A stretch of DNA of 64,000 nt from Thermoplasmata archaeon (GCA_035656275.1 DASRSW010000062.1:986-64985), one strand, 5' to 3'; counted from the stretch's first letter, positions 4,969 to 52,514 are shown. Numbers and translations: made by a program. Notes: a model not told the origin generated them from the sequence alone.

Positions 4969-5046
4969 CTCGCTTAACGCGCGGGAGCCTCTGTTGACGA
5001 CGATCTCCTAGGCACAGAACCAGGGTGGGAACCCGGTTGGTCGAGT

Positions 5047-5150
5047 CCTGACAAGGATTCGAACCGCCCAGCGTTTCAAAAGCTCTGGATTCGAGGGTAG
5101 GCATGTTATGGGGAGTTTCGGGGATTCGAGAGTCCATCCCCGGGTGGTCG
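5047..5150 (-). repeat. Array of degenerate tRNA T-arm/3'-end-like remnants (GGTTCGAATCC-CTTGTCAGG plus two further CTCGAATCC-like copies)
   Basis: The minus-sense sequence contains CTCGAATCCCCG, CCTCGAATCCAGAG and GGTTCGAATCCTTGTCAGG within about 100 nt. The T-stem does not pair canonically and no 5' half was found. I interpret this as stacked att remnants. Confidence 0.4.
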
Positions 5151-5415: not shown

Positions 5416-7107
5416 CTACGGGAAGAGGCCGGTGTCGGGAAGCGGATCAACTTGAATGGGTATGGCTCCGCCATAGGTCACCCGTGGAGTCGGATTGTCT
5501 CTGGACCCCGAATCAGGCTTGGAAACTGTCGAGTCGTTCGCCTTAAACACCCTATGGTAACGCAGCATCGCCTCATTCGCAGACTGAGCTCTACCGAGGT
5601 CCGTATACACCTCGATTAGCGCGGGCAATAGGACGAAGCCTTCCAGCGCCATGTAGTTCGCCTGAAGAATCCTGTCAGCTTCCTCCAAGTATGGTAGGGC
5701 TTGTGTGGGCATGCCAGCCACACGGTAAAGATTGCCGAGAAGGCTAGATAGTCGAGCCCTGATCGCCGGAGGTAGTACTGTTCGATATCGTTCTAGTAGG
5801 TCTTCGATAACCAGGATGCCCTCTGCGGCGCCATCCGGCTCTTCAAGGATGCAGTTGGCGTACAGCAGTTTGCATTGGGCTTCTAGCATCGGACTCGGAT
5901 TGTTCAGGAGGTCCAACAATTGTACTGCTGTTGCGCTGTACAGGAACATCCTGGCTCGCATCTGTTGCACACGGCGAGTTACATCGAAGGGGGTTGAAGT
6001 CTCTGTGGAGCCAAGTTGCACCTGTCGGATTGTCGCGATTCTTCGTCCCACGGCAACCGCCGCAATGTAGTTTGTAATCAGCCTGTCCTCGACAGATTCT
6101 GCTGTCAAACTCATGCGGCTAAGATCAGCGGAGGGGATTTCTACCATGGACTTGCCGGAGTCGAAGGTACCCCACCAGGCCGCCTCTGTTAGGTTGAGGC
6201 GTATCACCGTCTGGCAGAACTGACGGGCGTTCGATAGGTGATACTGCAGCTTGTTGAGCTTTAGTCGGGGACTGGCTTGATGGACCGCTTTAGGACGGAC
6301 GAAGTCCTCCGTGATGGAGAGTCTTGCCAGAAGTTTGGCCAGGAGCGCTCTCGTATCGCACTTGACAGCGGTTCCGTGTAGTGATCCCTTCAAGTCGCTC
6401 CTGAGAACTGCGTTCAGGTCCTCGACCTGGAACCCCGGCCCTGCCTCCTGGTGATTGACCAATATCAGTCTGCTATCAGTCGGACCGATGTCTCTGAGAG
6501 TTGGGTTAATGTCGAAGTAGTCAGAAAAGCTGTAACCAAGTACTAGCACGAGCCCATGCCCATCTTTTGCTAGGAGCTCTTCTAGACTTGAGCGGAGCTC
6601 CGGCCTGGCCTGATTACGAACAAGCTCCTCTGACGTGGCCTTAACGGAAGCGGGGTCAGAGGCTCGCCCGTGAAGATGGTCAACGTCCAGCCTGAACTCC
6701 TCAGTGGGGTCCAATCGAAACCGGCCCGACCGGCTAAGAGAATTGGCCGCTTTCTCCACAAGTTCATCAAAGTTTGTCGTCACTACCCGTCTGGTGCAGC
6801 CCGCCGACATAATCGCGGCGATGGCGTAGTGCTCGAACGTTGGCTCCGCCGATGAAAATACATCCAGCAGTTCGCCGTAGAAAGAACCACCAAGTGATCC
6901 GATTATCACCTCAAGCGGGAGCTGTCTCACTCGAGGAGGAATCGGGTCGAGCCACAGCGCCGACAAAATTGAATTCGAGATGCTGAGAGCACCAGGGATT
7001 CCCGATGGTATCGAGACTCCCGCACCTAACCATAATGCTAGCTCGCCGCGTCTCGCGGAGCCAGCCAGAATCTCGATGATACCGTCAACAGAGTCCGGAG
7101 TCGTCAT
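5416..7107 (-). CDS. SIR2-like (SIR2_2 / DHS-like NAD-binding) domain protein fused to a C-terminal TPR-like helical-repeat domain
   Basis: N-terminal motifs LWLGAGVSIPSGIP, VVTTNFDELVEKA, VDHLHG and LVLGYSFSDYFD match the defence-type SIR2_2 signature (GAGxS / TTNYD / LHG / GYSxxD). The C-terminal ~300 aa is a helical repeat. Confidence 0.75.
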   Translation of the reverse strand: MTTPDSVDGIIEILAGSARRGELALWLGAGVSIPSGIPGALSISNSILSALWLDPIPPRVRQLPLEVIIGSLGGSFYGELLDVFSSAEPTFEHYAIAAIMSAGCTRRVVTTNFDELVEKAANSLSRSGRFRLDPTEEFRLDVDHLHGRASDPASVKATSEELVRNQARPELRSSLEELLAKDGHGLVLVLGYSFSDYFDINPTLRDIGPTDSRLILVNHQEAGPGFQVEDLNAVLRSDLKGSLHGTAVKCDTRALLAKLLARLSITEDFVRPKAVHQASPRLKLNKLQYHLSNARQFCQTVIRLNLTEAAWWGTFDSGKSMVEIPSADLSRMSLTAESVEDRLITNYIAAVAVGRRIATIRQVQLGSTETSTPFDVTRRVQQMRARMFLYSATAVQLLDLLNNPSPMLEAQCKLLYANCILEEPDGAAEGILVIEDLLERYRTVLPPAIRARLSSLLGNLYRVAGMPTQALPYLEEADRILQANYMALEGFVLLPALIEVYTDLGRAQSANEAMLRYHRVFKANDSTVSKPDSGSRDNPTPRVTYGGAIPIQVDPLPDTGLFP

Positions 7108-8523: not shown

Positions 8524-8546
8524 CCCTCACAAGGATTCGAACCTGG
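8524..8546 (-). other. tRNA 3'-end-like remnant (CCAGG-TTCGAAT-CCTTG-TGAGGGT)
   Basis: Near-canonical T-arm (one mismatch). No 5' acceptor partner found within 150 nt. Confidence 0.35.
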
Positions 8547-9321: not shown

Positions 9322-10359
9322 TCAGTCGGAGGTAGGAGCTGGATGAAAGCCTCGTAGTACGCTCACCATTCTTTCGATAGCCTCAATCGAGCGATAGACG
9401 GCGGGAATCTCGAATCTCCTCTGACTCTTGTGGATGATGTTATTCCTGATGTTGTAGACTTTCTCGACATCCGCAATCAGCTGGCTTACATCAGACCGCG
9501 CTTCAAGTACTTCGATAATGAACCTGGTGAGTCCGATTAGTGGAATGTTCCTGATGATCTCCTCGGCGTGGGTTCGCCTTTGCTCCTCCACTCCGCTCTC
9601 GGTTCCGAATCTAGACGCGAGATAGGCTTCGATCTCGGCTTCTAGCGCTATCACCAGCTCGATGTAGACCAGGTCGTATTCCCTAGTCACGTAGTGAATT
9701 CTGCATCTGGCGAGGTAGTTTCGTCTAAGCTGCGTGCGTCCGTCGTAGTCGATTGTCAGGATTCTGAATCTCTCAAGCTCTGCCCGACCAGCCGGCCAGT
9801 CAGCGGTGTAGCACAAGTCTAGGTAGACGATTGCTTCAGGGGGAGTTGTCTCGAGAATGAAGCGAATCTTGCGTAACGTCGGTAATGGGCCTAGGTCCGC
9901 ACTCTTCACGCGATAGGAGGTCTCCCAGTACCCTTCGGAGGCGGTATCGTCGATGGCGGCCGCGAGCCTTTCTTCCAGATTCGTTGTATCAAGGCGACCC
10001 GCCGAGGCCAATCCCAATTCGTAGTCGGAGTAGTCGAGCACTGCCAGTTCGACGGACTCGACCGGGATCCCCGCCGCTTCCGAAATCCACTTGTCAAGAT
10101 TCTGACGGGTCAGCCCGAGACCGTCTAGGCGGACAATGGCGGTACCCACCGTAGTCTCGTACCAACAGTCGAGTCCGTCATGCTCGCGAGACGGAGCGAA
10201 CGCCGCAGAATCGGGATTCGGCCGGCGAGAATCTAAGTCTATTTTCCGATCTGCAGGTCGGAATAGACAGCTCAGGGCGTGGTCGTCAGTCTCCGGGACC
10301 GCGTTTCGCCATTTCAACGCCGCTGAATCGCCTATCCAGAGAGTCGACCAATCCGCCAT
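9322..10359 (-). CDS. Hypothetical protein with C-terminal HEPN-like module (RNxxxH motif IRNNIIH)
   Basis: Helical C-terminal ~110 aa carries R-N-x3-H about 45 residues from the C-terminus. The N-terminal ~230 aa is an unknown domain. Confidence 0.6.
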   Translation of the reverse strand: MADWSTLWIGDSAALKWRNAVPETDDHALSCLFRPADRKIDLDSRRPNPDSAAFAPSREHDGLDCWYETTVGTAIVRLDGLGLTRQNLDKWISEAAGIPVESVELAVLDYSDYELGLASAGRLDTTNLEERLAAAIDDTASEGYWETSYRVKSADLGPLPTLRKIRFILETTPPEAIVYLDLCYTADWPAGRAELERFRILTIDYDGRTQLRRNYLARCRIHYVTREYDLVYIELVIALEAEIEAYLASRFGTESGVEEQRRTHAEEIIRNIPLIGLTRFIIEVLEARSDVSQLIADVEKVYNIRNNIIHKSQRRFEIPAVYRSIEAIERMVSVLRGFHPAPTSD

Positions 10360-17092: not shown

Positions 17093-17576
17093 CCACGTTG
17101 GAGCCCGCCACTCCTACATATTCCTTAGTGGTCTTCTCAGCGAGTCGAGGGGCCGAGAGGGGGCCTCCGTCGCCAGAATCGCCTGTTGCGTGACTTCGAC
17201 GAACAGCACCTGCCGGAGACGCGCATTCACCTGACGCCACTGCACTGCACCCAGAGCAGCTGTTGGAACTCACCCACTCTTCTGGTCAGACCGCACCGTT
17301 TCACCTGCCTTCCGCGGGGTGAGACGATGAACCAAAGCATCACTCCGCCCACGACCGAGCCCGCCGACCCCCGCTGCGACAACCGGTGTCCCCCGCCTCC
17401 GCACCGTCACCGGAAACCGATGGCCCCGATAGTGCGGCTGTAGCCAGCCGATCCCCCACGACCCCGAGATCCGCTAGGTCGTCGACTTCGGCGCCTCGCG
17501 CCCCTACCCCGCCTATCTCCGTGAGCACTCCCCCGACTTCGGGAGCTATCGCGGGGCGGCGTCCACCGGGCCGAAG

Positions 17577-17927
17577 GTGACGGTCGTCGAAGTCCCCCGG
17601 TTCACCCCCGCGAGCGATCTTCCTTGTCCAACGGCCGTCGCGCCCGAGATCGCCCACGCCAACGACGACTCCTCTCCCTCGCCCGAGGCCGGTCGCGCCT
17701 GGGCCCTCGGCCAGCTCGTCATCAACGCGGGCCAGTTCGAGTCCGCCCGCAGCGGCTTCGCCTCCTACGCCGCGAACGGCGAAACCGAAGCGCAGCTCCG
17801 TGCCCGCGTGAACCGCGTCATCCTCGAGGACCTGGAGCAGAAGGTGCTCGCCCTCCGCGAGAAGCTCCGCGACCGCCTGGAAGGCTCGTCGTTCGGGGAT
17901 TTCGTGGCGCGTGGCCATCCGAGGTAG
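17577..17927 (+). CDS. Hypothetical protein (116 aa)
   Basis: Protein-like composition. The opposite-strand ORF 17340-17963 looks antisense (G/R-rich). Confidence 0.3.
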   Translation: MTVVEVPRFTPASDLPCPTAVAPEIAHANDDSSPSPEAGRAWALGQLVINAGQFESARSGFASYAANGETEAQLRARVNRVILEDLEQKVLALREKLRDRLEGSSFGDFVARGHPR

Positions 17928-18141
17928 GTCCGGCTGGGGGGAGCTCGGGGAGATTACTATCAAAGCCTCAGACTCTGAAGTTTGCCGCTGCCACTAATCG
18001 ATTCACTTTGACGGAAGGACGAGAACTTATTCGAGTCCCAAATTTTGGGCTTTCTTGCTTGGTGGGAGGCTGTTTTGGCTCCGTCGAGCTCGGGGATCTA
18101 ACTTTAGTCGACCGTCTGGAAAGTCGGAGTCGGCGTCCTAC

Positions 18142-19040: not shown

Positions 19041-19071
19041 GGGCGGGGACGGATTCGAACCGCCCGGCGGT
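19041..19071 (-). other. tRNA 3'-end-like remnant (GGCGG-TTCGAAT-CCGTC-CCCGCCC)
   Basis: Canonical T-arm with one G-U. The anticodon arm could not be folded and no 5' acceptor GGGCGGG was found. This may be an intron-containing or split tRNA that I could not resolve by hand. Confidence 0.35.
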
Positions 19072-19264
19072 TCAAGTATTGTGGAGGATGGCGAGGAGAC
19101 TGAATCGTCGGGACGGCACGCTCAATTCAGTGTCGACTTACGCGCCTCGCTCGCAGACTTCTATTCCCGGTCGAAGTGCAGAATTGGCGGGGCGACCGTC
19201 GACAGGGGCTCCCGATCCCAGGGCCTCTGAATCCAGGACGCAGTTCGTTGCCCACCCATCCTGG

Positions 19265-21039: not shown

Positions 21040-21680
21040 CTATGACTCTCTCGACTCCCGTGAGAGCTTCGGCGGATTTGTGGTCGTCAATGCAACCACT
21101 CGCAACCCCGCAGCGCGAGCGGACTCGATTCCGAGTGGTGCGTTCTCCAACACCAAGACTTCATCGGCATTGACGGCCAGCTTCTTCAGTGCAAGCAGGT
21201 ACGCATCTGGGTCGGGCTTTGTCCTCGAAACATCCTCGGCGGTCACAATCACTTTGAAAAGGCTCAGTATGGCCCGAGATTTCTGGTGACAACGTCGTGC
21301 CAATTGCCCGAAGCAAGCGCGAGGCTTACTTGATGCGCTTGGAGTTCGCGGATGACCCTCTCGGCATCAGCGTAGAGAGGCATCGTCCCGAGGAAGTGGA
21401 AGAGCAGCTGATGGAGCTCGCTCATCTAATCCAACTGTTCCTCCGTGAAACTGACCCCGTGGTCCTGTGCGACGATACTTATCAGGTCCCGGGATCGTCT
21501 ACCCTCATTCGCGAGGACTTCACCAGGAACGATGGCTAGACCGAACCGACGAAAGATGGAAAGGTACACCTCGGCGTTCAGTTCCATCGATTGGAAGAGA
21601 ACTGTGTCTCCGTCGAAGATGACCCCCCTTAGTCGCCGCCGGATTGTGTCGGGGCCTGGGGGATGACGAATCGACGCCAT
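21040..21680 (-). pseudogene. HAD-IA (beta-phosphoglucomutase-like) hydrolase pseudogene, split by a frameshift into ORFs 21426-21680 and 21040-21303
   Basis: The N-terminal fragment has a degenerate motif I (GVIFDGDTVL). The C-terminal fragment has KPDPDAY...VLVLENAPLGIESARAAG. The two ORFs are in different frames with a 123-nt gap. Confidence 0.55.
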
Positions 21681-22140
21681 AGCCCACAGTCAATCCGCCT
21701 GGGCGACCTTCATCCGGGACCTCGGGGCACCGCCCCCGAAGGTCCAGATCAGCCGCGGGGAGTTGTATTCGACCTGGACGGAACGCTGGTCCCGAGTCAC
21801 CACGACTTTAGGAAGATGCAGGACGCGATCATCTCTATCGCTGTTCGTACTGGCGCCCGGGAGAGGACATTGGTCGCCACCGAAAGTGTCGGAACGAGTC
21901 AGATTCTGAGCGACGCACGGAGAGAGTTGATCCGCGCAGAAGTCTCGACGAAAGCCCTTGCACGATTTCACGAGGAGGTGGCATTCGTTGTAGACGCAAT
22001 AGAGATGACCGCGGGCAATCGGACGACGCTCCGACGCGGGGCGAAGGAACTCCTCGAGTACTTGAAAGGGCAGGGCTACCGGCTCGGGCTCTTCACCCGC
22101 GCATCGGGCCCATTCTGCGTTGAAATCCTGACAAGGATTC
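21663..22140 (+). pseudogene. Truncated HAD hydrolase gene (motifs I and II present, motifs III/IV missing). The reading frame runs into the tRNA-like remnant at 22127.
   Basis: GVVFDLDGTLV and GYRLGLFTRAS are present. No K/DD motifs follow before the att-like sequence. Confidence 0.45.
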
Positions 22141-22147
22141 GAATCCA
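22127..22147 (-). other. tRNA 3'-end-like remnant (CCTGACAAGGATTCGAATCC), shares a 17-18 nt core with 5047-5066
   Basis: Exact match of CCTGACAAGGATTCGAA to 5047-5063. The T-arm is non-canonical (palindromic GGATTCGAATCC). Confidence 0.35.
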
Positions 22148-22575
22148 GTCCCGCCGCGTGTCACAGCGTTTTTGAAGGGTTCGGCTGATTGGCACGGGCG
22201 GTGCCCTCTAGCTCAACCTCGGGACACAGTATCGTGTCCTGTACACCACTCGACTGGAGCTTTTTCCACCGTCGGGCCGTGGCCGATGTTCTGACTACGG
22301 CCAAGCGGTGGCAATCTGCCATGATGAGCGGCGAACTATGACTAACTCGTGCTACTTTCACCACAGCGAAGGACGAAGAGGAAGATCAGCGTCGAGTCAA
22401 GGGGGGTGGAGCAGGTAGTTTACCGCTCCGGAGCTAAAATCCATAGAAACGCTGCGTCACGCGCAGCCATGCACTGATTCGCCGACGCTCCCCCTCCAAT
22501 GCCGAACTCGGCGGATCGACCTACTACAACTGTGCATTGTGCTCACCATGGTGAGGGCCCTGCGAGCCTTCACAC

Positions 22576-23391
22576 TCAGAATCGTACCCAGCCCAACCAC
22601 TCCGCAAGAGCGATTCCCCCTGCGACTACCGCTGAGCCCAGGACCGACGCTTGGAACCACGCTTTCTCCCAGAACGACCTGATCTGAAAGTCAAGTCTGT
22701 AGGTTGAGGACTTGACACGACCCGCTGTGCTGTAGCTCAGGGTAAACGGAATGCTGTAGGTTCCCGCGGCCGCCCAGAACGGGATTTGGGCACGAATTAG
22801 GAAGGGCTGGTGGCGGACAATGACTCCCTCGGAACTGATTTCGGTGATGTCTACCTCTCCCACCGTCCGGTACCCCCTGTCAACTTCCGAGTCCTCGGGT
22901 CGGCGAGAGCCGCGGGGATTCGCGCTCGTCAGGAGGGGGAAGAAGTGGGCGATTGGCACCTTCATGTCCGCGCCATGTTGAGTGACAAGGATTTCGTGGA
23001 CGTCCTTGATCGCGACCAGCGGAGTTCCTTCTGGAATCGCTTCTTCCGCGATTCCTTGCGGCATGCCGGTCGATATCGATGAGGTTACTGAAATGCAATC
23101 GTCCTCACTCGATTGTCCTCGCTTGAGAAACAGCCCGAGCGGCGGATAGAAAGAGAGCTTTGCCCACTGAGGTATGCCGTAGCCCGAAAAGTAAACGTGA
23201 ACTAGCAAGTCATCACCCCACCCGAGAGAGTGTTTCTCCACTCTCGCGGAGAGATCCCAGTTCGCTTCACCTGCCCCGGCCTCTCCATAGGGAACCACCG
23301 GACTGAGGATATCTCGGGCGGGGACGTGCGGGGGCCCGTGGGCAGGGAACCCTTGGTCGGGGACGTTGACGGGGCGAATCCTCTTCGGCAA
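22576..23391 (-). CDS. Hypothetical protein (271 aa), downstream of the NERD-like gene
   Basis: ORF with protein-like composition. No recognisable motif. Confidence 0.5.
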   Translation of the reverse strand: MPKRIRPVNVPDQGFPAHGPPHVPARDILSPVVPYGEAGAGEANWDLSARVEKHSLGWGDDLLVHVYFSGYGIPQWAKLSFYPPLGLFLKRGQSSEDDCISVTSSISTGMPQGIAEEAIPEGTPLVAIKDVHEILVTQHGADMKVPIAHFFPLLTSANPRGSRRPEDSEVDRGYRTVGEVDITEISSEGVIVRHQPFLIRAQIPFWAAAGTYSIPFTLSYSTAGRVKSSTYRLDFQIRSFWEKAWFQASVLGSAVVAGGIALAEWLGWVRF

Positions 23392-23650
23392 ATTCGATTC
23401 TCGCTCTACCGCCCCTCAGCGGCCGAAGCTGCCTGCGTCTCCTGTGGGTCAGTGAACGTGGTAAGAGCTAGGGAGTGCCGATACAAGGGGATGGCGCACG
23501 TGGATCATAACCTGGAATGCTGACTGGCCGAAATACACCAGCTGCAATGGTCAGGCTAACGCAAAGCTCGAAATGCGCGACACCCTCAAGCTTGATTCTG
23601 CGGCCATGGCAAGCTTTCGGATTGGCGTCTAGTCCGACCCGTCAGATTGC

Positions 23651-25378
23651 TCAGTCTGGGGCCTCAGACCCTGGTTCACTAAGGCTCGGAATCAACGCGT
23701 CGGCCGAGCTTGCGCCTCGTCGAAGGAACTTCTTCACGTAGCTTGGAGGCGGATCAATCATCAGATCTTCATAGGGATCAAAGTTCAGAAGTCGATCGGC
23801 CTCAGCAAGACACTGCTTCTGATATCCTACGTCGCTCCCGATTATCGAAACTCGAACCTGTTTCCGTTCACCGACTTCCCATCGAGCTTGATCTCGTATG
23901 AGGAAGGCCCTGAGCATGTCGAACTCATCGGTGGGGAGCGTAGTCTGAAGTCGAAGTCGCTCAGACCTCCAGTCGAGATAATCGACGAGCTCCGAGGATG
24001 GGATCTTGTCGAGCAGGTAATTGAAATCGAAGACGTTGATGATCAACGGCCTCGTCAGTCCTTGGAGTGCCTTTCCAATTGTCCCTTTCATCGTGCATTG
24101 AAGGGGAATAGCCGGAAAGTAGGCCTCGAGAACAATGAGATTCCCGAATATGTTAGCCGAGTCGAGTCCCTCCTCGCAGGCGTGCGCCTGCTCAGCGGCG
24201 TGCAGAATCGTGCTTTCGACGTCGCGGTAGAATCCGAGGTAAGTTCCCCAGCGACCCGCGGGCGATAGGGGGCGGGCTTTGCATTGGACAAAAAAGCGGC
24301 CACCGCTTGGGAGCACCATGACGAGATCGATTTCTGGAGACCGCGGGTTCGAGCGAACATCGTTGTGAACCATGACTTCAGGCCAGGACCGCTTGATTCG
24401 GCCTGCGACGACTCGCTCAAAGGACTTGCCAATAGTCGACCCGTAGTAACCTAGTTCTCGCGAGTCGAGACGTTCGGCCAACCCCCAATGAATAGCTGAC
24501 GGAAGTTCGCGATCGAGGATGTGGGTGTCGAGCAACTGAACCCCTCCGTCTCGTCTCTTGAGAAATGTCCAGCGGCTGATCGACGGAAAGGGCTCTGCGA
24601 GAGCGTTCAGGTCTGTCGCCAGGAAGAATGGAACCGCTGGATTCAGTCCGATGAGTGGAAGTCGGTCGAGCTTATCCTTCGAAAGGGTGATTGCATCCAC
24701 TATCATTTCGAGGAACACGGCGGGAGGAAGCAGGACTCGGCCCGCGTACTTGTGCGGGTGCCGGCCGTACCATCGCATCTGAGCCATCTCCTTACGAAAC
24801 CCGGACACGGCCGGCGTTCCGCGATGGACCATCCACCATGCAAACCGACAGGCGTCCTCCGAGGTGAACCCAAGGTGCTTGACCAACAGCTGGTCTGATG
24901 TCCAAAACTTCTCCATCACATAGACCACGCATTCACCCAGAGTCGGACCTCCCTCCACCAATTCGGCCAGACTTTGAAGGGCAAAGGCAGCCGAACCCGA
25001 TTCCGAGTGTTCCGGCTCCAGGTCGATGGGCTCCAAGGGGTTCAATCCAGGGCCTTCGCCGAACGCCTCGTAAAGGCCCTGCAAGACCTCACGAGTCTTG
25101 ACCAGAGTCGCCCGCTCTCTCCCGCTCCCAGAGCTGCGTTCCAGTGTTCGACGGACTGCAAGGTGGGTCGGGAGGAGCTGTCCTGGCATTTCACCGTTCC
25201 AGAGATGGATCGCTGCCTCAGCAGCCAGGAGCTCCTCAACGTCGAGCTGACTGATCCGCGCTGTGAGAGCCTCTGGTTGACTGACTTGGGCTCCATGGTG
25301 CGCGTCTCGTCTGGCGTGCCTCATCCTCAGGACATTGGGTCCTGCGCCATAAGAGTACAATAGGAGAGGACAGGTCAC
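23651..25378 (-). CDS. Hypothetical protein with a NERD-like / PD-(D/E)xK-like nuclease motif
   Basis: The segment EIDLVMVLPSGGRFFVQCK matches the NERD pattern (E-I-D-hhhh ... G-hF-V-h-E/Q-x-K). Confidence 0.55.
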   Translation of the reverse strand: MTCPLLLYSYGAGPNVLRMRHARRDAHHGAQVSQPEALTARISQLDVEELLAAEAAIHLWNGEMPGQLLPTHLAVRRTLERSSGSGRERATLVKTREVLQGLYEAFGEGPGLNPLEPIDLEPEHSESGSAAFALQSLAELVEGGPTLGECVVYVMEKFWTSDQLLVKHLGFTSEDACRFAWWMVHRGTPAVSGFRKEMAQMRWYGRHPHKYAGRVLLPPAVFLEMIVDAITLSKDKLDRLPLIGLNPAVPFFLATDLNALAEPFPSISRWTFLKRRDGGVQLLDTHILDRELPSAIHWGLAERLDSRELGYYGSTIGKSFERVVAGRIKRSWPEVMVHNDVRSNPRSPEIDLVMVLPSGGRFFVQCKARPLSPAGRWGTYLGFYRDVESTILHAAEQAHACEEGLDSANIFGNLIVLEAYFPAIPLQCTMKGTIGKALQGLTRPLIINVFDFNYLLDKIPSSELVDYLDWRSERLRLQTTLPTDEFDMLRAFLIRDQARWEVGERKQVRVSIIGSDVGYQKQCLAEADRLLNFDPYEDLMIDPPPSYVKKFLRRGASSADALIPSLSEPGSEAPD

Positions 25379-28490: not shown

Positions 28491-29270
28491 ATGCCGAAGG
28501 ACGTACCGACTTCTGAGCAACCGTCGAGAGCGGCCGACCCAGCGTCCGATTCTGTCGACGGTGAACGTGGCGTCGCTCTTTACATTCGTGTGAGCACGAA
28601 CGATCAGAGCCTGGAAGGACAGGAACGCGAACTGCGACAGGAGGCGACGAGCCGTGGCTGGACGGTCGTGGCCGTCTACAAGGAGAAGGCTTCGGCCAAT
28701 GGCAAGTCGGCACGCCATGCCTACGACAGGCTGATTCGAGACGCCGGCCGACCGCGCCGACCCTGGCGGCATCTGCTGGTCTGGGCGCTTGACAGGTTCA
28801 GCCGCGATGAGACCTTCACTCGGGCGACCCAGACGATACTCGACTTGGAGCGCACGGGCGTCAGATTCCACTCCCTAAAGGAGCCGACGTTGGACACTCC
28901 GGACGACGGACGACCCAACCTGGGTCGGGATGGCCTCCTCGCCCTGCTCCCGGTTATCGCCAGTTTCGAGTCGAGGCGTCGCTCGGAGAGAGTCCGAGTC
29001 GCGATGAGAGAGATTCGAGAGGGTCGCCGTCGCACGCGATCGGGTCGCCCACCGGGTCGACCGCGGAGGCTCACACCGGAGAAGGTGCAGCAGATTCTTC
29101 GCTTCCGGTCGCAAGGCCTCCCCTGGTCAACGATCGTTCAACGAGTAGGCTTACCCTCGGGCACATGCCGCTACGCCTTTTCGATGGCCAAACGCGCGGC
29201 TGTCGAGAACTCCGGTATGTGCAACGCGGGGGCGAGTAGCGGGAGTCCTGAAGGTCCTCCAACGGCATGA
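28491..29270 (+). CDS. Serine recombinase (resolvase/invertase family) with C-terminal HTH
   Basis: ALYIRVSTNDQSLEGQ with catalytic Ser. LLVWALDRFSRD. VRFHSL.EP.LDT. C-terminal HTH (WSTIVQRVGL). Confidence 0.85.
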   Translation: MPKDVPTSEQPSRAADPASDSVDGERGVALYIRVSTNDQSLEGQERELRQEATSRGWTVVAVYKEKASANGKSARHAYDRLIRDAGRPRRPWRHLLVWALDRFSRDETFTRATQTILDLERTGVRFHSLKEPTLDTPDDGRPNLGRDGLLALLPVIASFESRRRSERVRVAMREIREGRRRTRSGRPPGRPRRLTPEKVQQILRFRSQGLPWSTIVQRVGLPSGTCRYAFSMAKRAAVENSGMCNAGASSGSPEGPPTA

Positions 29271-31486: not shown

Positions 31487-32254
31487 GTGAGCCTCGCCTA
31501 CGATGTCCTCGACCGGTATCTCTACAAGGAGGACGTTCAGCAGCTCGCCCGCGATCGAGGACTTCCAACTAATCGTCCGAAGGATGAGCTGATTGCCACA
31601 CTCCTCGGGTCGGGGCGATTCGTCCCGGCAGAGGCACTCCGGTACCTGAACAAACGGGAACTTCGCCAGATCTGCCGTGAGTACCTCTTACCAGACGAAG
31701 GAGGCCGCGAAGTCCTCTTCCGGAGAGTACTGGCCGCGATCTTCGCCGGAGAGAGAACGGACCTAGCCGAGGAGGTGCCCGACGTAGACGATGAAGATAG
31801 CGATGAAGAAGAGACCGAACCGGGGAATGCAAACATGGGAGAGGAGGAGAATCACCGCGACAAAGGCGGACCTGGACCCCCGAAACGGCGTACGTCTCTC
31901 AGGTGGCCGGCTAGTGAGGCCCCGGTGCCACGGGGTGAGAATCTTGAACCAGGCGCGGCTCTCGGGTTCATACGGATGCCCCCCGCCCCCTGGCCCACCT
32001 CTAATCCCTCGGCCTCGTACGCTCTGGCACAAGACGTGTCTCGAGAACATCCGGATTCCACCGGGCCGTGGGCGGTCGCGTCGATTGTCGCAGGAGCAAT
32101 CGTGGCAGCCGGGTTCTATCTCCTCATTCCGGCACTTGGCCTCGGGGAGGGCCTTGCGGCCGCTATCACTCTGGCGATAGTCGTCGCGGCGGCTTTGATG
32201 CTAACCCGACAGCGGTGGGTTCCGTGGCTCGCGGGACTTGGTCAATCCTCGTAG
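31487..32254 (+). CDS. Hypothetical protein: N-terminal SAP-like helix-extended region, acidic linker, C-terminal TM anchor
   Basis: VQQLARDRGLPTNRPKDELIATLL resembles a SAP motif. DDEDSDEEETE acidic tract. C-terminal hydrophobic helices. Confidence 0.5.
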   Translation: MSLAYDVLDRYLYKEDVQQLARDRGLPTNRPKDELIATLLGSGRFVPAEALRYLNKRELRQICREYLLPDEGGREVLFRRVLAAIFAGERTDLAEEVPDVDDEDSDEEETEPGNANMGEEENHRDKGGPGPPKRRTSLRWPASEAPVPRGENLEPGAALGFIRMPPAPWPTSNPSASYALAQDVSREHPDSTGPWAVASIVAGAIVAAGFYLLIPALGLGEGLAAAITLAIVVAAALMLTRQRWVPWLAGLGQSS

Positions 32255-32390: not shown

Positions 32391-33836
32391 CTAACGTCGC
32401 GAGACTAGGCCAATCACGCGCTGCTGAAAGGCCGGGTCCCGAACTTCTGAGAGCTTGGCTGACGAGTACGCTCTCAGCGCTTTCTGGAACACTGCGTTCG
32501 TCGTCCTGCCTTCAAGAGACTTAGCCAAAGTCATGAAGCGGGAGGCTCGTGTGCTATCTCCTATTGCCTGCCGAATGTGGTCCTCTCTTGGGGACTGTAT
32601 GAACTCGACGATCTCTTCGTCCTGGAAGACGCTAATGAGAGTGTCGTAGATTGGCTTTGCGATGAAGGACACCCCGAACCTGTTTCCAAGTCTGCAGATT
32701 ACGAGGGTTTGTACGTAATCCTCGACTACGTCTGGAGGGATTGCCCCGCTCTTCGGAACGAGTCGTAACAGTTCTCTGGCGTGCGGCTCTTCATTGAAGA
32801 AGTTGTCCCACGCGAAATGTGCGCTGCGCAACTCCTGTATGCAGCTCGCCATCTCAACTGCTAGTTGACCCGTCGGAAGGTACCCGAGTCCGTCGATTCG
32901 GGACAGAAACCTGCGTGCGAGGGCGGCGCGGTCCGTTTCGCCGTTTGCAGCAAGAGTGCCGTACTTGATTCCGATCCCGTGCCGCGCGGACTCGCCGCAG
33001 CGACCCCAAATCGACTGGGCAATGAAATCTACGTTGGTTCGAACTCGTTCGTCAAGGTCCTTATCCACGTACATTCCGAAGACCGCCTGAACCAAGGAGT
33101 GAGCAAAGTCGTCGGGGAGTCCCTTGATGCTGGCCTGTATGGGCTTTGCCTCCCTCTCGGTTAGGGTCGTGGTCCGGAGACTTGTCAGAAGTCGTTTCAG
33201 CTCGACCAATGGACCTTCGGATGGGGCAGCCTGGACATTCCTCAGACAGGTTTCCAACCACGAGACCAAGCTGATGCCCGTAATCTCATTCAAGTTCGGG
33301 TGCGCTGCGCTGGCAAAGTTCCTCATGTCGCGTATGAAGTCCAGTTGCCGATACGCGATGTCGGAGAGAAGGCCAATTTCCTTGCAGCCCCGAATAAGGT
33401 CCCAGTCGCGCAAATTGGCCAGGTCCTCCACTGCTTTGAATTTCAGTCGCTCTGCGGCGTTCGTCACAGTCGCATCGAAGAAGTAAGTCAGATCGAACAG
33501 TACCACTCTGTCACGAAGAGTTACGACCGTCGCATCCCAGAGGTAGTTCAGTGCGGCGTCGAACAACCCTACCGCACACGCGGCAGTGAACTTCGAGATG
33601 TAGAACGCCTCAGAACGCTGTTCCGACTTTAGTACCGAGACGGTCTCCGGTAGTAGAGAAAATACCTTTCGTCTCTCCGGGAGCGGGGCGAGAATGTCTC
33701 TTGTCGGCAGATCAAGCGCCTTTAGGTAGGATGTGAGATCTGAATCGAGCGAGGCAATCTGAGACTCGACGGGTTCGCTAACAACGAGTGCCTTTGAACC
33801 GGACTTACTCTTGGCCGCTTCTGCCATTTGCGCCAA
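32391..33836 (-). CDS. Hypothetical protein (481 aa) containing an R-N-x6-H-P motif (FIRDMRNFASAAHPN)
   Basis: Long ORF in the lower-GC island. The HEPN-like motif is suggestive only. Confidence 0.6.
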   Translation of the reverse strand: MAQMAEAAKSKSGSKALVVSEPVESQIASLDSDLTSYLKALDLPTRDILAPLPERRKVFSLLPETVSVLKSEQRSEAFYISKFTAACAVGLFDAALNYLWDATVVTLRDRVVLFDLTYFFDATVTNAAERLKFKAVEDLANLRDWDLIRGCKEIGLLSDIAYRQLDFIRDMRNFASAAHPNLNEITGISLVSWLETCLRNVQAAPSEGPLVELKRLLTSLRTTTLTEREAKPIQASIKGLPDDFAHSLVQAVFGMYVDKDLDERVRTNVDFIAQSIWGRCGESARHGIGIKYGTLAANGETDRAALARRFLSRIDGLGYLPTGQLAVEMASCIQELRSAHFAWDNFFNEEPHARELLRLVPKSGAIPPDVVEDYVQTLVICRLGNRFGVSFIAKPIYDTLISVFQDEEIVEFIQSPREDHIRQAIGDSTRASRFMTLAKSLEGRTTNAVFQKALRAYSSAKLSEVRDPAFQQRVIGLVSRR

Positions 33837-38671: not shown

Positions 38672-40303
38672 GTGGGGACAGGGTTTACCGAAACGGCACA
38701 CATGGGCGATCGAATCGTCATGCTCTCAGGTGCAATTGGTTCGGGTAAGTCCCTCCTCGGGAGGTCCCTAGCCGCTAGCGAGGGGGCCCGAGTATTCCGT
38801 ACGCGGGATGTGCTGAGACGACTCGTCCCTTCGGAGAGCGCGGATGACAGAAAGGCGCTCCAATCGGTTGGAGACCGACTGGACTTCGAGACAGAGCACC
38901 TGTGGGTCCTGCAGGAGTTCCATCAGTGGCTCGCTGGCCAAAGCGCTTCCAGAATGTCCGTTGTGGACTCGGTCCGTACCCTCGGCCAGGTAATGGCCTT
39001 TCGAGAGGAGTACGGGGCACGGGTGACCCGTGTCCACCTTTCGGCCCCTGTCGTCGAACTCGAGAGCAGGTACGCCCAACGCGCCCAGCCCAGTTCGGGC
39101 CGCGCGTACTCCTTTGCCGAGGCGCGGGCGAACGCCACCGAGCAGCAGATTGAGGCACTTGGGAACGTCGCAGACCTGGTCGTCGACACAAAGCGCTGCA
39201 CGCCGGCAGATGTCCTGATTCGTACACAGAGTCACTTCGGCGTGCGCCCCTCCGCGGGGCGTGGCTACGTTGACGTAGTGATCGGGGGACAGTATGGCAG
39301 CGAAGGGAAAGGTCAGATAGTCGATTTCATTTCGGAAGAGTACGACCTCCTAGTTCGGGTCGGCGGACCCAACGCCGGTCACTCGGTCTATCGAACACCG
39401 AGGCCCTACGTTCATCACCACCTTCCCTCAGGCACGCTCCGCGGATCGGCACGCCTTCTCATCGGACCTGGGGCCGTTCTGGGTGTTCAGACGCTCCTCA
39501 AGGAGATACGCGAGTGCGGGGTTGAGCAATCCAGGTTGACCATCGACGGAGGCGCTATGACGATCTCCGCGGACGACCTCACAGCCGAAAAGGGGCTCGT
39601 CGCGTCTATCGGGTCAACTGGTCAAGGTGTCGGGGCCGCGACTTCACGCCGAATCATGGGTCGTGGAACCGGGATCAAGCTGGCACGCGATGTGCCCGAC
39701 TTGGCCCAGTTCATCGGGAATGCGCTCGACGTGCTTCGGGAGACTTTCGCCTCTGGCGGGCGCGTCCTCCTCGAGGGTACCCAAGGGACCGGTTTGAGCC
39801 TATTTCATGGAAGCTACCCACATGTAACCTCGAGGGACACCACGGTCATGGGTTGCCTCTCCGAGGCCGGAATCCCACCGTCCCGAGTTCGGAGGATCGT
39901 AATGGTCTGCAGAACCTATCCAATTCGGGTTGAGAGCCCGGAGGCCGGCAGTTCAGGCCCCCTGCGTGAAATCTCTTACCAGGAGCTTGCCTCGCGCTCG
40001 CATATCGACGAAGCTGAGCTACTTGCAACCGAAAAGACTTCAACGACCCGGCGACAGCGACGCCTTGGGGAGTTTGAGTGGGACAATCTCCAACGAGCCG
40101 CGTTCTTGAACGCCCCGACCGACCTAGCGATAACGTTCGCCGACTACATCGACAAAGGCAATCGCGAAGCACACCGGTTCGAGCAGCTTTCTGAAGAGAC
40201 TATCAACTTCATCCAAGAGGTCGAGAGGGTTACTGGCGTCCCGGCCTCTCTGGTCGCGACTGGGTTCGGCGAGCGCAGTGTCATCGACCGACGGGCCTGG
40301 TAG
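38672..40303 (+). CDS. Fusion protein: N-terminal P-loop kinase-like domain plus C-terminal adenylosuccinate synthetase (PurA)-family domain with altered catalytic residues
   Basis: Walker A [14 protein letters not shown] in the first ~180 aa. The C-terminal ~360 aa aligns by eye to PurA: [19 protein letters not shown] vs [30 protein letters not shown] vs [23 protein letters not shown] vs [37 protein letters not shown] vs [39 protein letters not shown] vs TTGRRRRTGWLD. Asp13 becomes Ser and Lys18 becomes Gln. Confidence 0.8.
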   Translation: [543 protein letters not shown]

Positions 40304-40309
40304 GATATC

Positions 40310-40984
40310 GTGCGCGAGCCTGCCCTCTTCTCCCTATATCCGACCCTCTTCCACATGGCAGAGGACGGCAGTTGGCCAAGCATTCAGGAACGGGGTCTGC
40401 TCAGCACCACCGCCCTCCTCGACGCATACGGTGTGCAAGGGCCACAGCGAGTCGCAATAGAGTCTGCCTGGCGGCCCAAGAAGGTTGTTCTCAGACGTAG
40501 AGCGCTCCCAGACGCGGTGATTCGGGATCAGATCCCATTGCGGCCCGATCTGCTCGAACCCTGTCTCGTGGGCGGAGTTACGGTCCGGGAGTGGTACAGG
40601 TTGATCAACGGACGGGTGTTCTTTTGGCCAGATCGGAGGCGGCTGCAGTGGTTTCTCTCAGCCAAGGAGTACCGCGGCGAGCCACACATCGTCTTGACCA
40701 TGGACACTCGCTCGGTAGTCCAGCGACACCGGGAGAAGATTACGCTCTCCCAAATCAACTCGGGAAGCGCGTATCCCTCCAAAAGCACCGGGGTCGCTCC
40801 TAAGCGCGGTCCCTCGACCTTTCAACCCATCGCCGAATACCCCTTCCAGTATGCGGCTGAGCTCGTAGTAGAGGGCGGTATCCCTCAGGTCAACGGTCTG
40901 GTCCGTTCCGTTGAGCGCTGGGTTGCTCACAAGTCCGGAGACGAGGAGGCTATCTACGAACTCTTGGAAAGAATCTGGCCCTAA
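40310..40984 (+). CDS. Hypothetical protein (224 aa), starts 7 nt after the kinase-AdSS-like gene
   Basis: Tight operonic spacing. No recognised domain. Confidence 0.55.
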   Translation: MREPALFSLYPTLFHMAEDGSWPSIQERGLLSTTALLDAYGVQGPQRVAIESAWRPKKVVLRRRALPDAVIRDQIPLRPDLLEPCLVGGVTVREWYRLINGRVFFWPDRRRLQWFLSAKEYRGEPHIVLTMDTRSVVQRHREKITLSQINSGSAYPSKSTGVAPKRGPSTFQPIAEYPFQYAAELVVEGGIPQVNGLVRSVERWVAHKSGDEEAIYELLERIWP

Positions 40985-42908: not shown

Positions 42909-44393
42909 TCAGTGCAGTCGGCCGTCGTTGTCCGTCCGAGGGATCGGAGTGGGCCTTAGGATTGCACGGTTGGGTCCCAGTTGGGCCACGAACTCATAAC
43001 CCGACCCGATGAAGCGCTCCGCCTCGGCGAGGGAGACCACTCGCTGAGTCGAGGGAGGGCTGGGGGTGGCAGCCGGGGTCTGGAAAGGTAGTTCCTCGTT
43101 CGTGGCGGTGGTGCGTTGACCAGACCGCTTCCCGGGCTCTCCTCGGCTCTTCTCCTGCTCCGCCAGCATCTTCGCGAGGAACTCGATCGCCTCGGGCTCG
43201 CGGAGTAGCGCCGCCAAGCGCTCCTCCGCGCTCCGAGCTTCCTCGATTTGCTTCACGGCTGGAAGGGAGAGGGGGCCTCCGCAGGTCATGCAATACACTG
43301 CGCCGGGCGGGTTGACCGTCTTACAACGACCGCATCTGGACGGAGCCCGGCTAGGCTCCGGATTCTCCCTCGGGTCTGGCACTTTCACCCCGTAGCGTGC
43401 ATTCAGTGCACCGATCACATCCTTCCCACTCAAGTGGACGTAGTGCCGGGCGACGTCGCTCCCGGGAACCCACCCTGCTACCTTCTCGAGAATGGAGGTC
43501 GAGATTGCTGGGTCCTTAGCGAGTATAGTCAGCCGGGATCGGCGCAGCGCGTAGGCCGTCACCGGCTTCTTTATGCCCGCCCGCAGTGCGGCGGTCTCGA
43601 GCGCCTTGTACATCGCGCGATACGTGGCCGGCCTTCCCGACCGTTCCCCGCCCAAGTCGACCCAGAGAGGGGAGGAGGTGTCTTCCCGAGCCGGATGAGC
43701 GTTCAGCCAGGCCAGCAGCGCCGGGACCGCATCCTCGTAAACCGGGGCCGGCTCCGGGGCGGACCCTTTCTCCCGACTGACTCTGAGCTCGATGTATCCC
43801 TCGTCGTGAGGAACTACATCGCAAATCCGAAGTCGGTAGATCTCGCCAGGTCGGCAGCCGGAATTGAATAGTGTCCAGATCCAGGCCTTGTCACGGAAGT
43901 TCAGCGCCGCGTCAGCGATCCGAGCGACGTCCTCACGGGAGAGCATGTCCGATGGACCAGCCACGGGTTTCCATTTCTCCAGGCGGATTCGGAGCCAAGA
44001 AGGGTACTCCCTTCCCTGGCGGGCGAACCACCATCGCCAGAACGTTCCCAAGCAGTTCGTACCGGTCGCCCGTGTAGCTCGGGCGTAGACGCCCGGAGGA
44101 AAGGCCGCTGTGAATGCAGCCGGGGTCTCCTTGTCGGGGGAGAGGAAACGTGAGCCCAGCCGGGACGCTGCCAAAGGCAGCCAGGTTAGGAATGTCCGGA
44201 TCCGGACCTCGCTGACCTCGGGCCGGCGGGCCGAGACAAAAGCGAGAATCGCGTCCCGTTCAGATCGCTCGAGGTCGAGGACCGTGCCGACGGGTCCCCC
44301 CCCACCCAACTGAGCGAGACGTTTCTCGACGTAGCCAGACACGAGGTGGACGTCCCCGAACGGATCTTCGCGAAGTCGCTTCCGGCCCGCCAT
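42909..44393 (-). CDS. Tyrosine recombinase/integrase with C-terminal zinc-ribbon (CGRC...CMTCGG) extension
   Basis: Catalytic-domain residues ALRRSRLTILAK, ARHYVHLSG. Located 43 nt from the tRNA-Thr 3' end. Confidence 0.85.
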   Translation of the reverse strand: MAGRKRLREDPFGDVHLVSGYVEKRLAQLGGGGPVGTVLDLERSERDAILAFVSARRPEVSEVRIRTFLTWLPLAASRLGSRFLSPDKETPAAFTAAFPPGVYARATRATGTNCLGTFWRWWFARQGREYPSWLRIRLEKWKPVAGPSDMLSREDVARIADAALNFRDKAWIWTLFNSGCRPGEIYRLRICDVVPHDEGYIELRVSREKGSAPEPAPVYEDAVPALLAWLNAHPAREDTSSPLWVDLGGERSGRPATYRAMYKALETAALRAGIKKPVTAYALRRSRLTILAKDPAISTSILEKVAGWVPGSDVARHYVHLSGKDVIGALNARYGVKVPDPRENPEPSRAPSRCGRCKTVNPPGAVYCMTCGGPLSLPAVKQIEEARSAEERLAALLREPEAIEFLAKMLAEQEKSRGEPGKRSGQRTTATNEELPFQTPAATPSPPSTQRVVSLAEAERFIGSGYEFVAQLGPNRAILRPTPIPRTDNDGRLH

Positions 44394-44436: not shown

Positions 44437-44509
44437 AGCCGCGGGAGGGGTTTGAACCCTCGACCTGCTCCTTACCAAGGAGCCGCTCTGCCAGCTGAGC
44501 CACCGCGGC
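44437..44509 (-). tRNA. tRNA-Thr (anticodon GGU)
   Basis: Hand-folded cloverleaf. Acceptor GCCGCGG/CCGCGGC. D-stem GCTC/GAGC. Anticodon stem GCTCC/GGAGC with loop TTGGTAA. T-stem GAGGG/CCCTC with loop TTCAAAC. 73 nt, no encoded CCA. Confidence 0.85.
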
Positions 44510-44529
44510 GCGTTGGGGGCTGACGCGTT

Positions 44530-45390
44530 TCAGTTCTTCCGCTTTGCCCCCGGCGGTGGCGGGGAGGATGCCCACGGAAACCCCTCCGAGAGCCGGTCCC
44601 AGTTCTCGCGGTCGCCCGGATTCCACGACCTCTTCTCGAGGAACGCCTGCATCCCGGCCTTCTGGTCGGGCGTCCCGAACAGTCGGGACCATAGTTCGAG
44701 TTCGTACGCGAGGTCGGCCTCACGCCCCGGGTCGAGGGCGTGGTTGAGCGCGTACTTGGCCGCCGCGAGCGCGGTCGACGATTTCTGGGAAAGTTCGTCC
44801 GCGAGACCTCGGGCGGCTCGGTCGAGCTCGGCCCGCGGCACGACCTGGTCGACCAGACCCTGCTCCAGCGCCTCGGGGGCTCGCACAGAACGCCCCGTCA
44901 GGATCCAGTGGCGCGCCCGGGCGGCCCCGATTCGGCGAGGAAGGCGCTGGGTCCCTCCCCACCCCGGCATGACGCCGAGGTTGATCTCCGGTTGCCCAAA
45001 CACGGCGTCGTCGCTCGCCACGATGAAGTCGCAGGCGAGCGCGATCTCGGTGCCCCCGCCGAGGCAGGATCCGTGGACCGCGGCGATCACCGGAAGGGGA
45101 AGCTCCTCGATCGTCACCGTCACCCCCTGTCCACGGCGGCCGTGGTGGCGGGCTTCCGCAGGACCCATCGGCGCCATCTCGCGAATGTTCGCGCCTGCGG
45201 CGAACGCTCGCTCCGCCGCGCCCTTCAGCACGACGACGCGGGCCCCCCGGTCGCCTTCCGCGTGACCGAGGGCCTCCGAGAGCGCGACGAGGACCTCGCC
45301 GCTCAGGACGTTCACGGGGGGATGGTCGATCGTCAGGACTGCGACAGGTCCGTCGCGTTCGTAGCGCACCAGCGGACGGTCGGGAGTCAT
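44530..45390 (-). CDS. Enoyl-CoA hydratase/isomerase (crotonase family)
   Basis: VAVLTIDHPPVNVLS, AAVHGSCLGGGTEIALACDF, FGQPEINLG. Confidence 0.85.
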   Translation of the reverse strand: MTPDRPLVRYERDGPVAVLTIDHPPVNVLSGEVLVALSEALGHAEGDRGARVVVLKGAAERAFAAGANIREMAPMGPAEARHHGRRGQGVTVTIEELPLPVIAAVHGSCLGGGTEIALACDFIVASDDAVFGQPEINLGVMPGWGGTQRLPRRIGAARARHWILTGRSVRAPEALEQGLVDQVVPRAELDRAARGLADELSQKSSTALAAAKYALNHALDPGREADLAYELELWSRLFGTPDQKAGMQAFLEKRSWNPGDRENWDRLSEGFPWASSPPPPGAKRKN

Positions 45391-45457
45391 CGAGGGGGCG
45401 ACTCCGCCCCGATTATAAAGCGCAGTCTTGGGCGCGTATCGGTCGCGTCAGGGTCGG

Positions 45458-49445: not shown

Positions 49446-49532
49446 CGTTCTCCCGTCTGGCGAGGGGAGCCTTAGCGTTTCCGAAGCGGGGGAGAGGGTT
49501 TTCCGCCGGTCGCCCCCTGGGGAGGTGGGGCC

Positions 49533-51505: not shown

Positions 51506-51532
51506 CGCCGACGCGGGCGAGTCGGGGTGGGA

Positions 51533-52492: not shown

Positions 52493-52514
52493 TGCGCCCG
52501 GGTTCTCCGATCCC

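Follow-up and report, generated by a model that had tools for sequence, protein, structure and literature searches.

Upx, reportedly described by Gao et al. in 2020 as a single-gene defence system, and the nuclease-related domain (NERD), which is said to have been first described by Grynberg and Godzik in 2004 as a DNA-processing domain of pXO1, are compared here with the product of a predicted nuclease gene located on a stretch of 64,000 nucleotides from a Thermoplasmata archaeon (GCA_035656275.1 DASRSW010000062.1:986-64985; this whole stretch is referred to as the window, and positions are counted from its first letter). Upx consists of a large sensor and a C-terminal PD-(D/E)xK domain, and is reported to act as an Mg-dependent 3'-5' exonuclease on single-stranded DNA upon activation by a phage protein (PMC13099982), the trigger being the large terminase (PMC13601566). 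The protein of about 1,270 amino acid residues (aa) is composed of three domains, with the sensor at the N-terminus and the catalytic core (residues 1121-1272) at the extreme C-terminus (PMC13099982). GAPS1 is a single-protein defence of GMT islands, carrying PD-(D/E)xK near its C-terminus and triggered by phage capsid protein (bioRxiv 10.1101/2023.03.28.534373), while ZwsA of Pseudomonas aeruginosa is a stand-alone NERD-domain RNA endonuclease directed against RNA phages (bioRxiv 10.64898/2026.04.06.716636). Stand-alone nucleases of the PD-(D/E)xK/NERD-like type in mobile or defence-type DNA are already known, and what is new in the present case is a divergent archaeal member.

The nuclease gene was identified as a maximal open reading frame (ORF) of 575 aa with a GTG start at positions 23651-25378 on the minus strand. 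The first-pass annotation had listed this ORF together with a co-directional ORF of 271 aa, and both are present exactly as described, the latter, whose homologs carry the label DUF8164, being located at 22576-23391 (minus strand, TTG start). The ATG at 25324 (residue 19) was taken as the probable start of the nuclease, giving a product of 557 aa, because the gene calls of NCBI and JGI agree on this ATG, the N-termini of homologs align at M19 of the 575-aa ORF, and residues 1-29 are disordered in the AlphaFold2 model. NCBI contains an identical 557-aa protein, annotated as hypothetical, from a metagenome-assembled genome (MAG) of a Thermoplasmata archaeon. No significant match was obtained for either the nuclease or the 271-aa protein by search of Pfam, PADLOC, PHROGs and PDB sequences, and NCBIfam gave only sub-threshold matches (E values of about 0.07-0.1) for the window proteins, in agreement with the earlier remark that the 575-aa protein carries no other recognisable domain.

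The AlphaFold2 model of the nuclease, constructed with an alignment of 33 family sequences as input, showed a mean predicted local distance difference test score (pLDDT) of 84.4 and a predicted template modelling score (pTM) of 0.85. Along the minus strand, an N-terminal all-helical domain (about aa 30-285, positions 24524-25291; helices of the model at 28-260) is followed by a predicted PD-(D/E)xK (NERD-like) catalytic core (aa 287-460, positions 23999-24520), as defined from the model, conservation and fold matches, and by a C-terminal helical region (aa 461-560, positions 23699-23998; helices of the model at 461-562) with the conserved residues Y467, W470-R471 and D484-E485-x-D487. The N-terminal domain, mostly of high pLDDT except for a low-confidence loop around residues 204-211, is a candidate for a regulatory, sensor or substrate-binding module. 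Within the core, helix 306-331, strands 336-341, 350-355 and 361-367, helix 380-404 and strand 410-417 are arranged in the order alpha-beta-beta-beta-alpha-beta, which is the canonical topology of PD-(D/E)xK enzymes, and the catalytic-type residues are placed in the model on helix 1 (E321), strand 2 (D/E349-x-D351), strand 3 (Q365-C-K367) and helix 2 (Q397).

When the model was compared with PDB structures by Foldseek, the matches with meaningful probability were almost all PD-(D/E)xK nucleases. The top match was the cryo-electron microscopy structure of Upx (9wuf; E value 5.8e-5, probability 1.0, 562 columns, query-normalised TM-score 0.43), which was the sole match that reached far past the nuclease core, the core-only matches giving a TM-score of about 0.18. 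Card1 was second (probability 1.0), and weaker matches at the level of the core included EcoT38I, SduA, EcoO109I, NucS (probability 0.72-0.77), VRR-NUC, LmuA, Hjc, McrC, MunI and FokI. Among predicted viral structures (BFVD), only domain-level matches were detected, to Mrr, PD-(D/E)xK, NERD, RecB-family and resolvase proteins, with a viral Mrr-domain protein (probability 0.99) among the best. Comparison of the family profiles with PDB sequences gave a weak alignment to the core of SfsA (E value 0.33), matches to the SEC-C motif of SecA, and weak matches to RnlA. The AlphaFold2 core and the Foldseek matches thus agree with the nuclease assignment of the first-pass annotation, and both the core topology and the conserved residue set of the predicted fold are those of the PD-(D/E)xK nuclease superfamily.

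The motif on which that assignment was based, EIDLVMVLPSGGRFFVQCK, corresponds to aa 349-367 (positions 24278-24334, minus strand), and when all six frames of the window were translated between stops (about 57,000 aa), a loose regular expression of it gave no second match. The family is a rare one, with seven members found among 5.8 billion clustered proteins. A profile search of this set gave nothing beyond these seven close relatives, and exhaustive phmmer search of 1.84 billion cluster representatives yielded 34. With the close-clade alignment, no relative was detected in GTDB species genomes or IMG/VR, and a metagenome scan returned one locus, a duplicate of the relative's locus L001. In the alignment of 33 sequences, with identity down to about 20%, G317, E321 and D351 are invariant (33 of 33), and only D or E occurs at 349 (33 of 33). 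At 365 there are 25 sequences with Q, four with E and one each with M, L and S, so that 29 of 32 carry Q or E. C366 is shared by 32 sequences, K367 is retained in 27 and replaced by R in five, and Q397 is shared by 30. The motif is therefore conserved among homologs, being retained in those as distant as 14-28% identity, and G317, E321, D351, Q397, Y467 and E485 are all invariant in 21 aligned archaeal, haloarchaeal and bacterial sequences. Neither of the two outcomes that the first-pass annotation had named as refuting its nuclease assignment, a motif that varies among homologs or a predicted fold of another kind, was observed.

Some database gene calls within the family are truncated, namely P0007 (382 aa; L001, 7452-9149) and P0006 (461 aa; L003, 1183-2874); full-length ORFs of about 565 aa, aligning from residues 33-38 of the window protein, are present at both loci. 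Another archaeal relative, P0008 (834 aa; L010, 8001-10505), carries a Cys-rich C-terminal extension of about 300 aa with repeated CxxC pairs, which is absent from the window protein. The C-terminal additions of the nuclease family vary by lineage.

The relation of this family to NERD was examined at the level of both Pfam and profile comparison. Pfam NERD (PF08378; threshold 22.1 bits) matched neither the window protein (E<=1) nor the 33 relatives (E<=10), among which the Pfam search gave weak DUF4143 matches in four members. By tblastn against plasmids, a collinear match (E value 6e-3, residues 153-473) was obtained to a 589-aa protein of a Bradyrhizobium plasmid (WP_247790119.1), which RefSeq names a nuclease-related domain-containing protein and which itself scores 16.9 bits (E value 0.0095) on Pfam NERD, below the cut-off. 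The archaeal profile aligned by hhalign with this protein (probability 98.1%, E value 7.9e-14, 361 columns), with an alignment of seven bacterial members (98.3%, 1.3e-14) and with a 579-aa protein of a Halobaculum plasmid (WP_222609053.1; 98.25%, 2.7e-14, 400 columns), the aligned columns ranging from 326 to 400 across the bacterial and haloarchaeal comparisons. The archaeal family and these plasmid proteins are, as judged by profile similarity, true homologs. Relatives were found on 36 plasmid records under the names of NERD, nuclease-related domain or SEC-C domain proteins, the hosts including Agrobacterium, Diaphorobacter, Pontibacter, Rippkaea, Shewanella, Salmonella, Vibrio europaeus, Acuticoccus and haloarchaea.

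The plasmid proteins, as represented by those of Bradyrhizobium, Pontibacter (WP_068840302.1), Agrobacterium pAt (WP_099086648.1) and Halobaculum, share with the window protein the G..E, E-x-D and Q-x-K motifs together with Q397, Y467 and E485, and are likewise of similar size (590-745 aa for the bacterial members) and encoded by solitary genes in accessory DNA. The hhalign alignment spans a part of the helical domain (residues 66/124-285), the whole core and the region beyond it. The plasmid proteins differ from the window protein in that the identity is only 14-17%, the first 65-120 or so and the last 80-100 or so residues of the archaeal protein are left unaligned, and five of the seven aligned bacterial members are extended at the C-terminus and terminate in a zinc motif of the SecA SEC-C type, both of which are missing in the window protein. 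SEC-C-type ends were seen among the bacterial relatives of loci L022, L026, L027 and L029.

With respect to the NERD domain of pXO1-01, the window protein has in common the G-x-x-x-E of helix 1, the E/Q-I-D-h-h-h of strand 2 and the h-h-h-E/Q-x-K of strand 3, but differs in having Q instead of E at position 365. In hhalign comparison, each against this single template sequence, the G/E, D and (Q/E)xK elements were in register, but the alignments were weak, with E values of 0.48 for the archaeal and 0.012 for the bacterial profile. The name given in the first-pass annotation is therefore only partly upheld: the NERD label is right in substance because of the profile homology (about 98% probability, E value of about 1e-14) to plasmid proteins that RefSeq calls NERD or SEC-C proteins, whereas formal membership in the Pfam family is lacking. 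On this sequence evidence the window protein represents a divergent branch of a NERD-like family.

Among the systems described above, Upx resembles the window protein in being a single protein with a large non-catalytic region and a divergent PD-(D/E)xK domain. The window protein differs from Upx in its length of 557-575 aa and in the central position of its core (287-460), with about 100 residues beyond it. PADLOC 2.0 presumably holds a model for Upx; the window protein remained unmatched by PADLOC (E<=1), and no Upx model matched the 33 relatives (E<=10). Membership in Upx was rejected on the lack of a PADLOC match, the identity of 10% and the different architecture. GAPS1 shares with the window protein the single-protein form, a comparable size (455 profile positions) and the sensor-plus-nuclease logic, and differs in being bacterial, mostly from Klebsiella. 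The NCBIfam GapS1 model (NF047931) gave weak but consistent matches in the core region, of 12.0 bits (E value 0.068) for the window protein and 12.4 bits (0.051) for P0008, and membership in GAPS1 was also rejected, given about 12 bits against a cut-off of 320 bits.

ZwsA is likewise a single multidomain protein, in which the spacing of E535, D567, E580 and K582 (32, 13 and 2) is close to that of E321, D351, Q365 and K367 of the window protein (30, 14 and 2), but its flanking domains are of the VHS, DUF647 and S4 types. Card1/Can2, NucS, Hjc and Mrr domains are similar in the core fold and in the placement of catalytic residues, but this likeness is limited to the core of about 130-170 residues, and the window protein is devoid of any CARF, PCNA-binding or winged-helix module.

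No conserved partner of the nuclease gene was found. The nuclease and 271-aa genes, although transcribed in the same direction, are separated by a spacer of 259 bp (23392-23650) and are not tightly or translationally coupled. The possibility that the two form a two-gene system, consisting of the nuclease and a membrane component, is favoured by their adjacency and common direction in the window and by the defence-like neighbourhoods of homologs of the 271-aa protein (type IIG/ISP enzymes, SLFN/AlbA_2). This possibility is hardly credible, in view of the 259-bp gap and of the co-occurrence check that the first-pass annotation had proposed: by tblastn, all 16 further independent nuclease loci (eight archaeal-type and eight plasmid) were found to lack the 271-aa family, and where homologs of the 271-aa protein occur outside the window (three loci), the nuclease family is missing. 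A conserved nuclease-plus-DUF8164 pair was rejected by this test, and the 271-aa protein is considered an unrelated, membrane-anchored product of an independent cargo gene.

The label DUF8164 (PF26498) is a precomputed Pfam assignment carried by three of the five homologs of the 271-aa protein, while a direct Pfam scan of this protein and four homologs detected no family, and no mention of DUF8164 was found in the literature. In the low-confidence model (pLDDT 63), a beta-sandwich precedes a transmembrane helix at the C-terminus (aa 240-265; positions 22597-22674, minus strand), and the fold matches were to generic beta-sandwiches such as arrestin, FnIII and the C-terminal domains of GH3. At two of the three loci of DUF8164 homologs (L005 and L006), the gene directly adjoins genes for restriction-modification enzymes of type IIG or ISP, which are very large, and further neighbours at L005 encode SLFN/AlbA_2 and RNase_Zc3h12a proteins. 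DUF8164 may itself be a defence-island gene.

A total of 17 independent loci, nine of the archaeal type (the window included) and eight on plasmids, were subjected to all-against-all comparison of neighbouring genes, and no gene was found to be shared across the loci except for a serine recombinase, which is common to the window and L001/L009 (two of the 17 independent loci by tblastn; 32% identity). At L001/L009, the nuclease gene is located 76 bp downstream of this recombinase gene. The neighbourhoods of relatives contain genes of mobile elements (IS110 transposases, which flank the nuclease gene at L002 and L016, integrases, resolvases and relaxases) as well as those for toxin-antitoxin, AbiEi, a PLD protein with a large AAA protein, P-loop NTPase and DUF4209 proteins, suggesting a defence context. 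The Bradyrhizobium gene lies directly downstream of MobC and relaxase genes on the same strand, while L003 and L010 represent chromosomal contexts without obvious mobile genes. DEAD-box helicases occur near relatives inconsistently, so that the association with helicases, for which NERD modules had been noted in the first-pass annotation, was not borne out and a helicase partnership was rejected. The nuclease gene is accordingly one without a conserved partner gene, situated in variable DNA rich in mobile elements.

On two haloarchaeal plasmids (L025, 7154-12780; L028, 7154-12837), the nuclease homolog heads a same-strand series that continues with three hypothetical genes common to both plasmids and a gene for a DEAD/DEAH helicase. 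In contrast to other loci, the haloarchaeal nuclease gene may belong to a larger cassette. A family of small proteins of about 110-216 aa is encoded 1-6 kb downstream of the nuclease gene on the opposite strand in three loci that otherwise differ, namely the window (17340-17963), L010 (11661-14222) and L016 (16770-17516), and the latter two loci also have a thermopsin or peptidase_A4-PKD protein in common. The recurrence of this small protein family may reflect a shared insertion hotspot of the hosts rather than function.

From the modelled fold and by analogy with the systems above, the window protein can be proposed to be a stand-alone metal-dependent nuclease that acts in one-protein immunity or against mobile elements under gating by its helical domains, a proposal that is the likeliest of those considered here, although we regard it as evenly poised between right and wrong. 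Within this proposal, the conserved acidic residues would bind Mg2+ or Mn2+, and K367 would activate water to cut the phosphodiester bond of DNA or RNA. Until a cue derived from the invader is received, the helical domains outside the catalytic core would keep the nuclease inactive or determine its target. The protein would act autonomously in the manner of Upx, GAPS1 or ZwsA, because no neighbour is shared across the nine archaeal-type and eight plasmid loci. The surroundings of the gene also speak for such a role, with an integrase beside tRNA-Thr, a resolvase and SIR2-domain and PDC-M14B-like proteins in the window, and with the mobile and defence-like genes listed above at the loci of relatives.

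A number of points weigh against the proposed immunity function. The function of family members is deduced from sequence and a predicted structure; the alignment with Upx has a root-mean-square deviation of 11.7 A at 10% identity and provides no residue-by-residue mapping; PADLOC gave three isolated weak matches in the 33 relatives and none for the Bradyrhizobium homolog; and the neighbours at some loci are plasmid transfer genes, as in the case of the Bradyrhizobium relaxase, or ordinary housekeeping genes. In addition, the members with R at residue 367 (five of 32) or with M, L or S at 365 (three) may be inactive or of altered chemistry. The wider proposal is that the whole superfamily, that is, the Thermoplasmata-type archaeal, haloarchaeal plasmid and bacterial plasmid NERD/SEC-C proteins of 500-750 aa, is an unrecognised single-protein immune system with an architecture that is a compact relative of a part of Upx. 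In such a system, the helical domains would sense a protein or nucleic acid derived from the invader and thereby release the NERD-like nuclease. This wider proposal is put forward tentatively, and we doubt it more than we believe it.

The same neighbourhoods can be read in a different way, namely that the enzyme is a DNA-processing nuclease serving the mobile element itself in recombination, replication, transfer or partition. The location of relatives on conjugative or mobilizable plasmids, the position of the Bradyrhizobium gene directly after MobC and relaxase, the 76-bp distance from the serine recombinase at L001/L009 together with a resolvase nearby in the window, the flanking IS110 transposases at L002 and L016, and the original description of NERD, reportedly by Grynberg and Godzik in 2004, as a DNA-processing domain of pXO1 all point in this direction. 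We nevertheless consider it unlikely, since neither a recombinase nor a relaxase nor a replication gene is a constant neighbour, the resolvase is found at two of 17 independent loci in copies that are 32% identical, and the gene also occurs in the chromosomal contexts of L003 and L010. The solitary state of the gene is also what would be expected of a type IV modification-dependent restriction enzyme similar to Mrr, which needs no methyltransferase partner; recognition of modified DNA would fall to its helical N-terminus and cleavage to the Q-x-K core. The F-E ... D ... Q-x-K residues are in register with the FE...GIDG...VQAK of Escherichia coli Mrr, and the viral Mrr-domain protein belongs to the top matches in BFVD (probability 0.99). 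This reading is, however, distinctly unlikely, because Pfam Mrr_cat matched none of the 33 members, hhalign of the archaeal profile with EcoKMrr was insignificant (E value 0.14 over 69 columns), the bacterial profile left the Mrr core unaligned and yet aligned with the NERD of pXO1-01 (E value 0.012), and the all-helical N-terminal domain showed no Foldseek match to known readers of modified bases. Membership in Mrr was rejected on the missing Mrr_cat match, the insignificant hhalign alignment and the lack of a reader domain.

The substitutions in the motif also raise the case that the protein is a catalytically dead PD-(D/E)xK scaffold for binding of nucleic acid or protein only. Besides the R in place of K367 in five members and the non-polar residue or S at 365 in three, the window protein itself carries Q, and not E or D, at 365. 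Q-x-K is, however, a working variant in Mrr, and E321, D351 and the acidic residue at 349 are invariant across sequences with 14-28% identity and are therefore considered to be under selection for the metal-binding site. A D-x-R has moreover been reported to be catalytically required in the N-terminal domain of Upx (PMC13099982). Taken together, a dead scaffold is quite improbable.

Through these comparisons, an archaeal hypothetical protein is converted into a testable enzyme with named predicted catalytic residues, E321, D351 and K367, and a very rare archaeal family is connected with a wider, experimentally uncharacterised family on conjugative plasmids of Agrobacterium, Vibrio, Salmonella, cyanobacteria and haloarchaea, of which the bacterial members are tractable for anti-phage or anti-plasmid tests. 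If the immunity function holds, one more single-protein nuclease system reaching into archaea would be added, and if it holds for the whole superfamily, sensor-PD-(D/E)xK immunity of the Upx/GAPS1/ZwsA style would extend to archaea and many conjugative plasmids; if not, the protein would be an ordinary nuclease of mobile elements. The negative result on the 271-aa neighbour averts the proposal of a false two-gene system.

Both genes are located within a region of about 60% GC content, and the GC content is about 70% beyond its right edge. In the GC profile of the window, the content is about 0.56-0.65 over positions 1-44400 and about 0.67-0.73 over 44500-64000, with the jump at a tRNA-Thr gene (44437-44509, minus strand; ARAGORN and Rfam). 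Adjoining this tRNA gene, at the right edge of the lower-GC region, is the gene for a tyrosine integrase (42909-44393, minus strand; Pfam Phage_integrase) with a zinc-ribbon match. Either the left 44 kb is foreign DNA, in the form of a large island or of a mosaic of integrated elements, or the MAG contig is chimeric. No copy of the 3' end of tRNA-Thr was detected elsewhere in the window, leaving the integrase-associated element without a recognised far end. The serine recombinase (resolvase) of the window is encoded at 28491-29270 on the plus strand (Pfam Resolvase, E value 2.4e-25), 3.1 kb upstream of the nuclease gene and divergent from it.

On the left side of the two genes, the first-pass annotation had placed a tRNA remnant that truncates a HAD gene. 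The HAD gene (21663-22175, plus strand) is indeed truncated, the Pfam profiles being covered to about position 125 of 191, but the T-arm-like remnant at its end (22126-22158), which contains GGATTCGAATCC, was not called as a tRNA by ARAGORN or Rfam, by the latter even at E<=5. A minus-strand HAD copy, split into two ORFs (21040-21303 and 21426-21680), is located back to back with this plus-strand relic. Together with three related short repeats, the remnant makes up a set of four in the window (5046-5079, 8524-8541, 19051-19075 and 22126-22158), each organised around the palindrome-like core GGATTCGAA. An 18-mer, TCCTGACAAGGATTCGAA, is present exactly at 5046 and 22126 and as an 89% copy at 8524, with a related site at 19051, and the site at 5046 corresponds to the left arm of that at 22126 joined to the right arm of that at 19051. 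The minus strand at 19051 resembles the T-arm plus the 3' half of the acceptor of a tRNA. The four repeats look like decayed att sites or remnants of tRNA 3' ends from successive integrations.

Several other genes of the lower-GC region are of note. A 563-aa SIR2_2-domain protein (5416-7107, minus strand) with weak-to-moderate PADLOC matches to pAgo-associated SIR2, PDC-S65 and ThsA is, from these matches, likely to be an NAD-depleting defence effector. Beside it, a 345-aa protein (9322-10359) showed faint matches to CARF_HEPN, and a PDC-M14B-like protein is also encoded in the region that holds the nuclease gene. A 481-aa protein without Pfam match (32391-33836, minus strand) corresponds to phrog_27609 of unknown function (E value 7.5e-64), and the match suggests the presence of virus-derived DNA 7 kb from the nuclease gene. 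Near to this, a 255-aa protein (31487-32254, plus strand) is composed of two N-terminal SAP DNA-binding motifs, an acidic linker and a hydrophobic C-terminal tail, a combination that is odd for an archaeon. Towards the integrase gene, a 543-aa fusion of an AAA_33-type P-loop kinase-like domain and an adenylosuccinate-synthetase-like domain is immediately followed by a DUF7002 protein (E value 7e-59; 38672-40984 for the two, plus strand). This pair is unusual, and the occurrence of PurA-like enzymes within mobile DNA is reminiscent of the viral PurZ and of nucleotide-modifying defence enzymes.

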